A DNA stretch of 64,000 bases, taken from Bacteroidota bacterium. Its GTDB lineage: Bacteria; Bacteroidota; Bacteroidia; Chitinophagales; Chitinophagaceae. The translations under genes and the position numbers were made by a program. Below, in pieces: positions 1,183 through 35,725 of the stretch. The stretch covers positions 823,141-887,140 of the forward strand of contig JAZKDB010000001.1 in NCBI GenBank assembly GCA_040387755.1, in the 5' to 3' direction. Below the pieces are notes generated by a model that was not told the origin of the DNA, did not search any database, and was given only the letters and a program-made list of their open reading frames with translations. Within the stretch, counting starts at the first letter, position 1. Each line of letters starts with the position of its first letter.

Positions 1183-2979
1183 CTAATAATCGATACTCAT
1201 TTTCAAAGCATCTTTAAGCTGATGTAGCATTGGGTTTTTTTCTGCCATTGCTGCAAAAATTTCAGCCTTGCTTAATGCTCTTTCTCCGGGTTCATTTTCT
1301 GTAAGGACAAATGAATTACTGATACGAACCAACAAACCTGTTTCCTTCTTAATTAATTCCTGTATAGCACCCCGCTCAGACTGGGCATAGCTATCGGTAA
1401 TGCTATTAGGCGAGGTTAAATGTAGTGAGCCTTCTTCGGGCATCTCCAGCTTTACTGTTTCAAGTGCATTGTATAGAATACTTTTATTCTCTTCTTTAAG
1501 TTGTAATTTGTAATTATTGAAAATGCGCTCCACCATTTCTATTGAGAGCTCACTCATTAACATCTTTTGAGACTCAATTGCAAGGTTAGAGGTGTTACTG
1601 AGCATGTTTTTGGATACTCTCCTTTGCACTGAGCCAGTCTCGTTTTGTCCAAAAGGAGAAGGCTTTTTTGGCGGCTCCAGACCTTTATCCAATGTGCTTT
1701 CTGAGCTTTTATTGCTTTCTGTAACAACTGTCTCCAGAATTACCGGATTGGCATTGCTTTCTGTTTTGTTGAGCTGCGGTAGAGGTCTTTCTGTTTCGGA
1801 TTTTTGGGCCGTTTGAGCATCGTTTATGATGTCAGGCTTTGGACTATCGTTTTTTTTTTCGGTGCCAGAATCTATTTTAGTTGCCTGCAATACATAACAA
1901 AGTCTGATTAAACAGAGCTCTGTATGCAATCTTCTGTTGTTGGCATTTTTATATTCCAATTCACTTTCATTAACCACATTTAATGCAGATAAAATGAATG
2001 AGGGAGGTGCCTGTGCCGCTTTTTCGTGATAAATTGGTTTGTGATTATTGGGTACATCCAATAGTTTGGCCATTCTGGCATCTTTACAAAGCAACAGATT
2101 TCTGAAATGTTCAGAAAACCCATTCAAAATAACATCTCCCTCAAAGCCTCTGTCCAAAACATCATCCAGTAATAACAAGGTTCCTGCCACATCACCAGCC
2201 AAAATGATATCAGTGATTTTAAAATAAAAATCTGCATCTAATTGATTGAGATGCTCCATTGTTGCGGCATAAGTTAGCTGGCCATTGGTAAAGCTGGATA
2301 TTCTGTCCAACATTGACAAGGCATCACGCATACAACCTTCACTTTTTTGCGCAATTACGTGCAGCGCAGCCTCTTCGGCATTAATATGCTCTTTGCCGGT
2401 TATCTGAGCCAGATGCTGTACCGTGTCATTAGTGGTTATTCTTTTGAAATCAAATATCTGACATCGGCTAAGAATAGTAGGTAGTATTTTATGTTTTTCT
2501 GTTGTGGCCAAGATAAAAATGGCGTAGGATGGTGGTTCTTCAAGAGTTTTGAGAAATGCATTGAATGCAGCAGTACTCAACATGTGAACCTCATCAATGA
2601 TATAGACTTTGTATTTGCCTTGCTGTGGAGCAAAACGTACTTGCTCTGTCAGGTTTCGGATATCATCAACCGAATTATTAGAAGCAGCATCTAATTCGAA
2701 AATATTGAACGAAGTGTTGTTGTTAAAAGACTGGCAACTGTTACAAGTGCCACAAGCCTCCATCTCTTCTGTAGGGTGTTCACAATTCAGCGTTCGGGCT
2801 AAAATCCTTGCACAGGTTGTTTTTCCCACCCCTCTTGGTCCGCAAAACAAAAAAGCATGGGCAAGATGATTATTGCGCATGGCATTGCGTAGCGTAGTGG
2901 TAATATGCTCCTGACCCACTACTGTGTCAAAGGTTTGGGGTCTGTATTTTCTTGCTGAAACGATATATTGGTCTGACAT
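1183..2979 (-). CDS. dnaX: DNA polymerase III subunit gamma/tau
   Basis: ARKYRPQTF, Walker A GPRGVGKTT, Cys cluster CEHP...CGTCNSC, Walker B IIDEVHML, NAFLKTLEEPP, SRC motif. Confidence 0.98.
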   Translation of the reverse strand: MSDQYIVSARKYRPQTFDTVVGQEHITTTLRNAMRNNHLAHAFLFCGPRGVGKTTCARILARTLNCEHPTEEMEACGTCNSCQSFNNNTSFNIFELDAASNNSVDDIRNLTEQVRFAPQQGKYKVYIIDEVHMLSTAAFNAFLKTLEEPPSYAIFILATTEKHKILPTILSRCQIFDFKRITTNDTVQHLAQITGKEHINAEEAALHVIAQKSEGCMRDALSMLDRISSFTNGQLTYAATMEHLNQLDADFYFKITDIILAGDVAGTLLLLDDVLDRGFEGDVILNGFSEHFRNLLLCKDARMAKLLDVPNNHKPIYHEKAAQAPPSFILSALNVVNESELEYKNANNRRLHTELCLIRLCYVLQATKIDSGTEKKNDSPKPDIINDAQTAQKSETERPLPQLNKTESNANPVILETVVTESNKSSESTLDKGLEPPKKPSPFGQNETGSVQRRVSKNMLSNTSNLAIESQKMLMSELSIEMVERIFNNYKLQLKEENKSILYNALETVKLEMPEEGSLHLTSPNSITDSYAQSERGAIQELIKKETGLLVRISNSFVLTENEPGERALSKAEIFAAMAEKNPMLHQLKDALKMSIDY

Positions 2980-3031: not shown

Positions 3032-3697
3032 TTAATAAAACAAGTACATTAGTCTTAACGCAAAAACATTATTAAATTGTTGTGATCTTCCGAATTCTGC
3101 ATCTACATCATCCCTGACAGAAAGCATTGAATATTGAAAACGCAATCCGGCAAATAAGCCTTTGTAGACGTGTAATTGGCCCGATAAGACCAGATTGATA
3201 TCCATTTTTTTGAAAGGATATTTATCAGGGTCATATTTTATACTCGGATTGTTGACATTAATTACCTCTTTGCTATTAATCAACTGAGCATAGGATAGAC
3301 CTGCTCCGAAATGATTTTTTTTCTGATCGAAAAAGTTAATTTGAACAGGTATTTCGGCATAATTAAGCGTAATATTCTGTTTGGTAATTACGGCGATTTG
3401 ACTTGTGGTGGGTTGGGCACCATTTGATTTTGCCCCTTTTTGAGCGTACAATATTTCTAAACTGGCCGACATTTGGGGCAATAAGTGTGCATAAACTACA
3501 ACGCCTGTACTAAGGCCAATATTATGGTATCCCTTATAGCTGTCTCCATCTACCTGAGTAAAATTGGCTCCACCAATAAATCCACCCACAAAGGTTTTGG
3601 GCTCTTCAACATAATAGCTTTTAGGGTTTTGAGCAAATAACAGCAGAGGGCTAAAGGCAAAAATTGACAGGGTAAATAATAAACTTAGAAATCTCAT
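3032..3697 (-). CDS. Outer-membrane beta-barrel protein (porin/PorT-like, OMP_b-brl_2 type), paralog 2
   Basis: Signal peptide, GGANFTQV, LEILYAQKG, LNYAEIPV, alternating beta pattern, aromatic C-terminus (YLFY). Confidence 0.8.
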   Translation of the reverse strand: MRFLSLLFTLSIFAFSPLLLFAQNPKSYYVEEPKTFVGGFIGGANFTQVDGDSYKGYHNIGLSTGVVVYAHLLPQMSASLEILYAQKGAKSNGAQPTTSQIAVITKQNITLNYAEIPVQINFFDQKKNHFGAGLSYAQLINSKEVINVNNPSIKYDPDKYPFKKMDINLVLSGQLHVYKGLFAGLRFQYSMLSVRDDVDAEFGRSQQFNNVFALRLMYLFY

Positions 3698-3713: not shown

Positions 3714-4385
3714 TTAGAACAGGTACATAACTCTTAGTACCCACATGTTATTGTATTGCTTGCCTCTGGCAAACTCAGAATCAACTTTTTCGCGAATAGG
3801 CAAAATGGAATATTGAAAACGCAGATTGGCATATAATCCTTTAATCAAATGAAGATTCGCTGAGGCGATAAAATTGATATCTCTTTTTTTGAAAGGATAA
3901 TTATTCTGATCATACGGACGGACTGGACTTGTTACGATTTTTTCGTCAGAACTGATTAACTGAGCATATGACAATCCCACTCCAACATGGCTTTTGCGTT
4001 TGTCATACACATTCAATAAGATGGGTATTTCAGCATAATTAAAATTAATGTTTTGATTGACAATAGTAAATGAATCACTACTGGAGTTTTGTCTGAAATT
4101 GGAACGGGCACCTTTTTGCGAAAATAAAAGTTCCATACTTAAAGTGAGATCCTGAGCAATTCTTGCATACAAAATGGCGCCGGCATTGACACCTGTTTTA
4201 AAATAACCAGCATATTTATCTCCATCTACCTGACAAAAACTGGCACCTGCCACTAGCCCGCCACTAAACAATTTGGGCTCTTCTACATAGTAGCTGGAAG
4301 GGTTTTGTGCCTGAGCACGAAAAAAAATGCTGCTTGATAAAAGGATAACGCTTAAAATTGTACCTAATTTTCTACTTTTATTCAT
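3714..4385 (-). CDS. Outer-membrane beta-barrel protein (porin/PorT-like), paralog 1
   Basis: Start moved from 4433 to ATG 4385 (MNKSRKLGTIL.. signal peptide). MELLFSQKG, FNYAEIPI, C-terminal YLF. Clearly homologous to 3032-3697. Confidence 0.8.
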   Translation of the reverse strand: MNKSRKLGTILSVILLSSSIFFRAQAQNPSSYYVEEPKLFSGGLVAGASFCQVDGDKYAGYFKTGVNAGAILYARIAQDLTLSMELLFSQKGARSNFRQNSSSDSFTIVNQNINFNYAEIPILLNVYDKRKSHVGVGLSYAQLISSDEKIVTSPVRPYDQNNYPFKKRDINFIASANLHLIKGLYANLRFQYSILPIREKVDSEFARGKQYNNMWVLRVMYLF

Positions 4386-4407
4386 CGGTGATAAAGTAAC
4401 CAGTATA

Positions 4408-4713
4408 ATGAATCTCAAAATTACACCAAACACACTAAAAAAATTAGAGCAACTTTTCGAAGAAGCTCGTTATATCATTCGTTTCGAGAAAGGTAATTTC
4501 AACTCTGGTTATTGCGTATTGGAGCAGAAAAGGGTAGTCGTAGTCAATAAATTTCTCAATATTGAAGGGCGTATCAATGCTTTGGTAGAGATTTTACCAA
4601 CCATTCATCTGGTAGAAGAGGAGCTCAGTACAGAATCGTTAAAATTTTATAAACAAGTTATTGGCGAGTCTTCGGCTGGCGCAATTTCTGTTCAAACCGA
4701 AATGGATATTTAG
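4408..4713 (+). CDS. Small conserved-type hypothetical protein
   Basis: Start moved to ATG 4408 (MNLKITPNTLKKLEQLFEEARYIIRFEKGNFNSGYCVL). Ends 5 bp before the MBL hydrolase, so probably co-transcribed. Confidence 0.75.
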   Translation: MNLKITPNTLKKLEQLFEEARYIIRFEKGNFNSGYCVLEQKRVVVVNKFLNIEGRINALVEILPTIHLVEEELSTESLKFYKQVIGESSAGAISVQTEMDI

Positions 4714-14817: not shown

Positions 14818-15591
14818 ATGTCTTCAAAAACTTGCCTGAATTGTGGTCACGAACTATCTAATAATTTTTGTTCCTTTTGCGGGCAGAAGGCCGATACTCA
14901 TCGTATCACTGTAAAGCATTTTATTCAGCACGATTTGCTGCATGGAGTATTTCATTTGGATAAGGGCATCCTTTTTACTATTAAAGAAACCTTTACCAGA
15001 CCCGGTAAAGCAGCCATGGATTATATCAACGGTAAGCGTATTAGTTACTATAATATTTTTTATCTCTTGTTGGTTTTAATAGGGCTTAATTTAGTTGTAG
15101 TACACTATGTCGAAGTGTTTAATGACACTGCTCTAAAGTTAAAAGTTAACAAGGATGGCACCAAATTATATGATTTTTTCAATAAAAATATAAAGTACAT
15201 TATTCTTTCTTTTATTCCCTTATTTGCTATTAATGGTTTGATTCTCTTCCGACGTTTAAAATTGAATTTTGCAGAACACCACATTATTGGAGGTTTCGTG
15301 TTACTTGGTTGTACCATTATGGCTTTGCTCATCAATCTGTTAGGGTTATTGCCAATATCTTGGCAAGAATCTTTTTTTGGATATCTTGAATTGGCCCTGA
15401 TGTTTTGTTTGTTTGTTTTCCCCTGCTATGTTTATTATATGGCTTTTGCTCAGTCATATAAAATTTATGGTTTCATTGTTCGTATTATTTTGATGTATTT
15501 TTTCTTTATAATGCAAGTTGTGTTTTTGACATTGTGTATTGCTGCTTGGCTATCTAAAGGAAGTTTCGAGGGGGAAATAAAATTTGCTTAA
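14818..15591 (+). CDS. DUF3667-like membrane protein with N-terminal Zn ribbon
   Basis: CLNCG..NFCSFCGQK, FTRPG, YINGKRISY, several TM segments. Confidence 0.85.
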   Translation: MSSKTCLNCGHELSNNFCSFCGQKADTHRITVKHFIQHDLLHGVFHLDKGILFTIKETFTRPGKAAMDYINGKRISYYNIFYLLLVLIGLNLVVVHYVEVFNDTALKLKVNKDGTKLYDFFNKNIKYIILSFIPLFAINGLILFRRLKLNFAEHHIIGGFVLLGCTIMALLINLLGLLPISWQESFFGYLELALMFCLFVFPCYVYYMAFAQSYKIYGFIVRIILMYFFFIMQVVFLTLCIAAWLSKGSFEGEIKFA

Positions 15592-15613
15592 AATATTTGT
15601 CTACATTAAAAAA

Positions 15614-15643
15614 AAAATAGCAGGTCATTTGACCTGCTATTTT
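15614..15643 (+). terminator. Intrinsic terminator (probably bidirectional)
   Basis: AAAATAGCAGGTCA / TGACCTGCTATTTT inverted repeat 22 nt after the DUF3667 stop. Confidence 0.8.
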
Positions 15644-20758: not shown

Positions 20759-21343
20759 ATGAAAAATATATTTACAAATTCTATTCTTTTGCTGAGTCTG
20801 CTGTTTTTCAGAATTGACTTTGTTTCCGCAAACCCTGATCCTACAAAAAAAAAAGGAGTAATATCTAATAATTCAAAAAGAACCACTGGATCAAAGTCCC
20901 CAAAATATTCTGGTGCAAAGTATATAGTTTCTACTCAGGAGAAGAAACCCTTATTATACACAAAAAGCTTTTCCAAAACCGGAAAAAATGTTTTTAAAAC
21001 AACCTATAATATTTACAATCTGCAAAAAGTACAAATTTATAAAGTGATTGCTACTCATAATAAAAAAAACAAGTCAATAGAAGTGGCCGTGAAAGACCTC
21101 GAAGCAAATGGGTTTCCGATAGTAAATATAGAAAGGACTCATTATGACATACCCTTTACCGGTAGATTTGGTGCAATAGGTAAAGTAGGTGCAATAGGTA
21201 AAGGCAGGTCACATGCTCAATCTCCAGGTCAATTAACTGTTAGTTTTGTTAGCAAAAAATTTGATTTCATCAAGGTTGTCCATATTGCAGACGCACATGA
21301 AGATACCAACAAGGATTTACAAGTCTTTGTATTGGATGAATAA
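20759..21343 (+). CDS. Hypothetical Lys-rich exported protein
   Basis: 194 aa, signal peptide ending VSA-N, strongly basic; no family recognised. Confidence 0.55.
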   Translation: MKNIFTNSILLLSLLFFRIDFVSANPDPTKKKGVISNNSKRTTGSKSPKYSGAKYIVSTQEKKPLLYTKSFSKTGKNVFKTTYNIYNLQKVQIYKVIATHNKKNKSIEVAVKDLEANGFPIVNIERTHYDIPFTGRFGAIGKVGAIGKGRSHAQSPGQLTVSFVSKKFDFIKVVHIADAHEDTNKDLQVFVLDE

Positions 21344-35686: not shown

Positions 35687-35725
35687 AGCTTTCAAAAGTA
35701 GTTTTTTCTTTTTTTTTTTGAGCGC

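Follow-up and report, generated by a model that had tools for sequence, protein, structure and literature searches.

The window – the whole 64,000-nucleotide stretch of DNA analyzed here – has dnaX as its first minus-strand gene. A single open reading frame holds both clamp-loader domains I–III and the C-terminal extension characteristic of tau (Pfam, NCBIfam). Pfam places DNA_pol3_delta2, the clamp-loader AAA+ module, at aa 22–181, DNAX_ATPase_lid at aa 187–225 and DNA_pol3_gamma3 (domain III) at aa 249–365; TIGR02397 (dnaX_nterm) matches aa 5–361, and NCBIfam NF011531 (PRK14971, 'DNA polymerase III subunit gamma/tau') covers aa 3–596 with 696 bits against a cut-off of 685. The C-terminal ~160 aa (query residues 438–598) are matched across relatives. 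The features on which the argument depends are the following.

1183–2979, minus strand: dnaX coding sequence, the zero frame of which encodes tau, 598 aa (ORF list, Pfam, NCBIfam)
1885–2979, minus strand: clamp-loader core, domains I–III, aa 1–365, common to tau and the predicted gamma (Pfam, TIGR02397)
1850–1859, minus strand: A10 homopolymer (T10 on the plus strand), the predicted slippage site, codons E374–N377 (direct reading, relatives)
1844–1846, minus strand: TAG stop reached with one extra A or by a –1 shift; predicted gamma ending EKKKR, 378 aa (direct reading)
1824–1826, minus strand: TAA stop reached with one A less or by a +1/–2 shift; alternative predicted gamma ending EKKTIVQSLTS, 384 aa (direct reading)
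1183–1849, minus strand: tau-specific part, a low-complexity linker followed by a conserved C-terminal domain (translation, relatives, NCBIfam)

The guanylate kinase gene (gmk) lies downstream of dnaX, at 1162–593. Upstream are two tandem paralogous genes on the minus strand, at 3032–3697 and 3714–4433, with products of 221 aa and 239 aa that have signal-peptide-like N-termini and a common ...NPxSYYVEEPK... motif; the first of the two (3032–3697) has a weak, sub-threshold match to the TDE1717 outer-membrane beta-barrel family.

The coding strand around the run reads GGC ACC GAA AAA AAA AAC GAT AGT CCA (E374 K375 K376 N377 D378). The ten A's occupy positions 1859–1850 and lie 9 codons past domain III. 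With one extra A, or after a –1 shift, the reading becomes GAA AAA AAA AAA CGA TAG, which closes at 1846–1844, 2 codons past the run. With one A less it becomes GAA AAA AAA ACG ATA GTC CAA AGC CTG ACA TCA TAA, which closes at 1826–1824; at 8 codons past the run, this second stop is not significant taken alone. The zero frame is open through to aa 598, and the two-ORF dnaX layout is absent here. The original prediction had specified the position of the run, its codons, both shifted-frame stops and the two shifted products (EKKKR, 378 aa, and EKKTIVQSLTS, 384 aa). Direct reading of the sequence bears out every position exactly, and both products are correct.

Long runs of A are rare in the coding regions of this genome (3.34 Mb in 8 contigs, 38.9% GC): within ORFs of at least 150 aa, only 4 sense-strand runs of at least ten A's occur genome-wide. 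Expected frequencies were obtained from a null model in which the codons of the 2052 ORFs of at least 200 aa were shuffled synonymously. Under this model 34.4 runs of A10 are expected and 3 are observed; for A9 the figures are 107.5 and 27, and for runs of A11 or longer about 22 and 0. The same avoidance is apparent at the level of codons. Three consecutive lysines are encoded by AAA-AAA-AAA 6 times, as against 86.5 expected – a 14-fold avoidance – in a genome where AAA is the preferred lysine codon (74%, with AAG at 26%). Avoidance of long A runs is a criterion by which such runs are recognized as harmful in the coding regions of a genome (Baranov et al. 2005, PMC1088944). The genome avoids long A runs, and the run in dnaX is therefore an exception that needs explanation.

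One of the other runs served as a negative control. An asparagine synthase-like gene outside the window carries an A10 at codon 475 of 635 (GAA AAA AAA AAT; C1:625602–625611), which is missing from 5 of 5 aligned congeners; because it is not conserved in these five, it is probably a recent, unselected run. Within the window, a further A10 (ACA AAA AAA AAA GGA, codons ~29–32) is found on the plus strand at 20845–20854, in the ORF at 20759–21343. It sits after the signal-peptide-like N-terminus of a 194-aa hypothetical protein, is one of no more than four sense A10 runs in the long ORFs of this genome, and is a possible site of slippage or phase variation. Other homopolymers in the window comprise an A10 at 15608–15617, just past the stop of the ORF at 14818–15591, a T11 at 35709–35719, probably intergenic and located at the very 5' end of a weak minus-strand ORF, and a T9 at 556–564, between gmk and the next minus-strand gene.

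Conservation of the dnaX run was assessed at two evolutionary depths, with counts that are not phylogenetically independent across genomes. The first set consisted of the 40 nearest genomes, drawn from the same genus, family and order, of which 39 were assessable; the closest named records are Flavipsychrobacter and Taibaiella MAGs, with 57–58% identity. Exactly ten A's occur at the aligned position, with tau in frame, in 11 of 11 assessable congeners, and a run of A9–A11 is present at the start of the linker in 38 of the 39 assessable relatives in the order Chitinophagales. Interruption of the run by AAG codons in relatives had been named in the original prediction as a finding that would speak against it; relatives do not break the run in this way. 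The DNA flanking the run cannot be aligned beyond the genus. In one congener MAG (L012, contig G001:C106) the contig stops where the A run would start (...GTTGA, then the end of the contig), which may be an assembly break at the homopolymer.

The second set comprised 80 GTDB species representatives from the Chitinophagales, Sphingobacteriales, Cytophagales, Flavobacteriales and Bacteroidales. A run of A9–A13 stands at the gamma/tau boundary in 65 of these 80 Bacteroidota, and in 55 of them it is exactly A10. The run is also present in 46 of 63 assessable metagenome loci. When metagenome contigs were searched for the exact flanks around a run of variable length, there were 0 hits, and in a protein-based scan of metagenomes no relative exceeded 59% identity. 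The peptide encoded by the zero frame over the run is variable (EKKN, EKKK, LKKK, AKKK, QKKK, KKKT and others), and each of the three codon phases is represented among the runs (8, 36 and 21 loci), whereas the length holds at 10. Because the run is conserved while the peptide, the flanks and the codon phase vary, the target of selection is the nucleotide run and its length, not the peptide or the codon phase.

The frames on either side of tau provide a second line of evidence. Across 65 loci the non-tau frames close at a median of 1 codon (the frame reached with one extra A, hereafter +A) and 4 codons (the frame reached with one A less, –A) past the run. In the null model for off-frame closure, based on the same genes, the median is 10 codons, and closure within 4 codons has a probability of 0.275. 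Translation of mRNAs in both shifted phases, as it occurs in Thermus (PMC5009743), would lead one to expect such early closure of both non-tau frames. The departure from the null shows selection for early stops in both of the other frames.

In 15 of the 80 loci of the phylum set it is the zero frame that stops, 0–5 codons past the run, and tau continues in another frame. Of these two-ORF loci, 12 have tau in the +A frame and 3 have it in the –A frame. Two-ORF relatives are also found within the order Chitinophagales: G027 and G018 have tau in the +A frame, G025 and G030 in the –A frame. Tau, the form that binds the polymerase, is essential, so the two-ORF relatives must slip at the run in order to live. 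Since tau is found in +A frames and in –A frames, one –1 shift of the ribosome cannot account for both layouts.

On these grounds we hold it very probable that the A10 run is a selected recoding site. The broader claim of the original prediction – that the gene is recoded, by slippage of either the ribosome or RNA polymerase, to give both a zero-frame tau and a truncated gamma – likewise gains support from the conservation of the run, from the early stops in both frames and from the relatives that depend on slippage, all of which are comparative observations on sequence.

Several Bacteroidales depart from this pattern. Three MAG dnaX genes (L066, CAMZFW010000113; L073, ONQD01000012; L087, CADAWR010000007) have no A run and carry an in-frame TAG at codon ~365–366. 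The TAG stands at the same gamma/tau boundary and is followed by a conserved context, TAG ATT GCA/GCT AGG; beyond it the zero frame remains open, with its homology preserved (...*IARSPQ...; Bacteroidaceae have GRSPQ). The pattern suggests that tau is made here by readthrough of the stop codon. A fourth locus (L079, CAMVOL010000002) also has no A run at codon ~375–382: its zero frame ends at a TAA (aa 382), with GCT AGG CAA TCA just upstream, and the +1 frame is open thereafter. In five further loci from Bacteroidaceae and other Bacteroidales (L054, L058, L072, L074 and L076) we found neither an A run of at least 7 nor a stop at the gamma/tau boundary. The dnaX gene of L054 is a single frame of 597 codons; the loci of L058, L072, L074 and L076 end before the tau stop. 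Taken with the TAG and +1 variants, these loci suggest that the poly-A site was replaced more than once within the Bacteroidales.

As to how the run would act, our preferred reading, to which we assign a probability of roughly 70%, is that the main mechanism is programmed transcriptional slippage of the type described for Thermus thermophilus dnaX. RNA polymerase would slip on the dT10 tract of the template and so produce mRNAs with 10, 11, 9 and further numbers of A's. Messages with 10 A's (or with three more or three fewer) would be translated into the full-length tau of 598 aa, the carrier of the linker and of the C-terminal part that binds the polymerase and the helicase. Messages with one extra A would meet a stop two codons on and yield the 378-aa product ending EKKKR, and those with one A fewer would meet a stop eight codons on and yield the 384-aa product ending EKKTIVQSLTS. 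Both short products would be gamma, that is, the clamp-loader core without the tau extension. We infer that it is RNA polymerase rather than the ribosome that slips, and that gamma accumulates in this organism.

Which machine slips cannot be read from the product, because a –1 ribosomal shift and an extra A in the mRNA both give EKKKR. The most serious competitor to transcriptional slippage, albeit one that we consider unlikely, is accordingly programmed –1 ribosomal frameshifting of the kind known from E. coli, in which the ribosome would slip on A_AAA_AAA of a uniform mRNA, run into the TAG and release the 378-aa gamma. The E. coli dnaX signal for programmed –1 ribosomal frameshifting is made up of the heptamer A_AAA_AAG, an SD-like element and a 3' stem-loop. 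An in-phase slippery heptamer is indeed present in our sequence, as (GA)A AAA AAA. ARAGORN finds 36 tRNAs genome-wide. The only tRNA-Lys among them has the anticodon UUU, as in E. coli; AAG and AAA are thus read by the same tRNA. The –1 frame is also the one with the tighter stop in relatives (median 1 codon).

The other components of such a signal are missing. No 3' stem-loop is apparent in the 80 nt downstream of the run (z = –0.16) and no 5' hairpin in the 70 nt upstream (z = –1.44). The mean z over 66 loci, –0.4 downstream and –0.5 upstream, compares with –0.23 for a control segment, and the downstream z falls below –2 in only 1.5% of the loci, which do not outperform the control. Stimulation by RNA structure, whether a 5' hairpin or a 3' stem-loop, was rejected on the basis of both the sequence itself and the 66 loci. 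The 22 nt upstream of the run contain no SD-like GGAG, GAGG or AGGA. In other genomes such 4-mers are mildly enriched upstream of the run (16 of 65 phylum loci, against 6 of 65 at a control position), a weak trend in favor of the ribosome. Of the three elements that define the E. coli cassette, only the heptamer is found here; the stem-loop and the SD-like element are lacking.

RNA polymerase is favored over the ribosome because the run is held at about ten although a heptamer would be enough for a ribosome, and because that length is independent of codon phase. It is favored, too, because frame changes in either direction are exploited or blocked: early closure extends to the +1 (–A) frame, which in some relatives is the one that carries tau. 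Finally, it is favored because 3' structure, an upstream SD-like element of its own and A_AAA_AAG in relatives are all absent; in E. coli, A_AAA_AAA is far less shift-prone than A_AAA_AAG (PMC5009743), and the latter is used by no relative in the phylum set. The in-phase A_AAA_AAA heptamer and the single tRNA-Lys (UUU) leave room for a measure of –1 ribosomal frameshifting, with the same EKKKR product, alongside transcriptional slippage.

A null hypothesis of a different kind is that there is no recoding, that the run merely encodes the lysine-rich start of a linker in an AT-rich genome, and that tau is the sole product. The preference for AAA as lysine codon fits this view, as does the low complexity of linkers. 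Yet lysine triplets made up of AAA alone are strongly avoided, conservation of the run holds for the DNA but not for the peptide or the codon phase, early closure is a conserved property of the two other frames, two-ORF relatives need a slip for their essential tau, and the control A10 in the asparagine synthase-like gene is not conserved. Chance, or a lysine-rich linker, was rejected as the explanation on the strength of the codon statistics, the conservation of the run and the behavior of this control, and we regard it as very improbable. Heritable slippage at the level of DNA, by which replication errors would switch cells between tau and gamma alleles (phase variation), draws on the hypermutability of homopolymers and on the differences between lineages in run length (A9–A13) and tau frame (three layouts), but is the least credible of these accounts, as a gamma-only allele would be lethal given that tau is essential (unless slippage during expression already supplied tau), the 11 assessable congeners all have exactly A10 with tau in frame, and differences in length are seen only between distant lineages. 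An assembly artefact was also rejected: the same run is found in more than 100 independent assemblies.

A bolder version of transcriptional slippage also deserves mention, tentatively, for we think it somewhat more likely to be wrong than right. Slippage on A10 might be so efficient that the templated frame hardly matters, in which case the run would be a frame-neutral switch. Lineages would then drift, by single-base insertions and deletions, among the three tau layouts while the run is held near 10, and this drift would include families within the organism's own order. Two gamma isoforms (EKKKR and EKKTIVQSLTS) would be made together with tau variants having one lysine more or fewer, and the ratio of gamma to tau would be set by the length of the run and possibly by nucleotide pools.

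Programmed transcriptional slippage at this site, if correct, has consequences for annotation. Pipelines call the gene a plain 598-aa 'gamma/tau' protein, and the predicted second product is missed; the run and its stops provide a simple rule for annotating gamma in Bacteroidota. The comparative data indicate that a poly-A slippage site of tuned length is retained in dnaX by most Bacteroidota, and not just in the two-ORF cases of the 2013 report; the present genome is a well-supported but ordinary example. They also lend support to the idea that selection maintains tau and gamma side by side. To our knowledge, the role of having both forms is still unexplained, more than 30 years after their discovery.

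Among known systems, E. coli dnaX resembles the present gene in its outcome (a predicted one in our case), a gamma that terminates within one or two codons of the shift and a little beyond the clamp-loader core, and in having an in-phase A-rich heptamer and a single tRNA-Lys (UUU). It differs in its AAG codon, its upstream SD-like element and its 3' stem-loop, none of which is found here; what is conserved here is the length of a run and not a heptamer. In Caulobacter crescentus, DnaX is processed by ClpXP (bioRxiv 10.1101/2022.11.10.516041). There, too, two DnaX forms arise from one gene (the second form being a prediction in our case), but the route is post-translational proteolysis without a recoding signal.

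The closest parallel in layout is Thermus thermophilus, where dnaX has an A9 run with stops in both other frames and gamma and tau are made at a ratio of ~1:1 (PMC1088944, PMC5009743) by programmed transcriptional slippage (Larsen et al. 2000, PNAS 97:1683, as summarized in PMC1088944 and PMC5009743). As in Thermus, tau is encoded in a single ORF, the sense-strand A run follows the clamp-loader core, and nearby stops in both alternative frames mean that any slip by other than a multiple of three would give gamma. Unlike the Thermus site, the present one is an A10 and not an A9, belongs to a member of the Bacteroidota (Chitinophagales) with 39% GC, and is known from its sequence alone. In its gene, its A run, its stops and the purifying selection to which the run is subject, it has the four sequence-level features of the Thermus-type dnaX class, of which it is a putative member.

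The closest parallel in phylogeny is the group of two-ORF dnaX genes with a poly-A run described from Bacteroidetes and Chlorobi (Flavobacterium, Cytophaga, Capnocytophaga and Chlorobium; Antonov et al. 2013, NAR 41:6514, PMC3711429, Fig. S3), for which transcriptional realignment was the predicted mechanism (Antonov et al. 2013, PMC3711429). The phylum is the same, the same A10 stands at the same gamma/tau boundary, and relatives of our genome within its own order (G027, G018, G025 and G030) have that two-ORF layout. The difference lies in what is templated: in the two-ORF genes the templated frame is gamma and slippage gives tau, whereas here the templated frame is tau and slippage would give gamma. 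The frameshift-detection method of Antonov et al. (2013) could not see single-ORF cases such as the present dnaX. An A10 in Bacteroidetes dnaX, in the two-ORF layout, has thus been known since 2013; the single-ORF case described here is the Thermus layout in that phylum.
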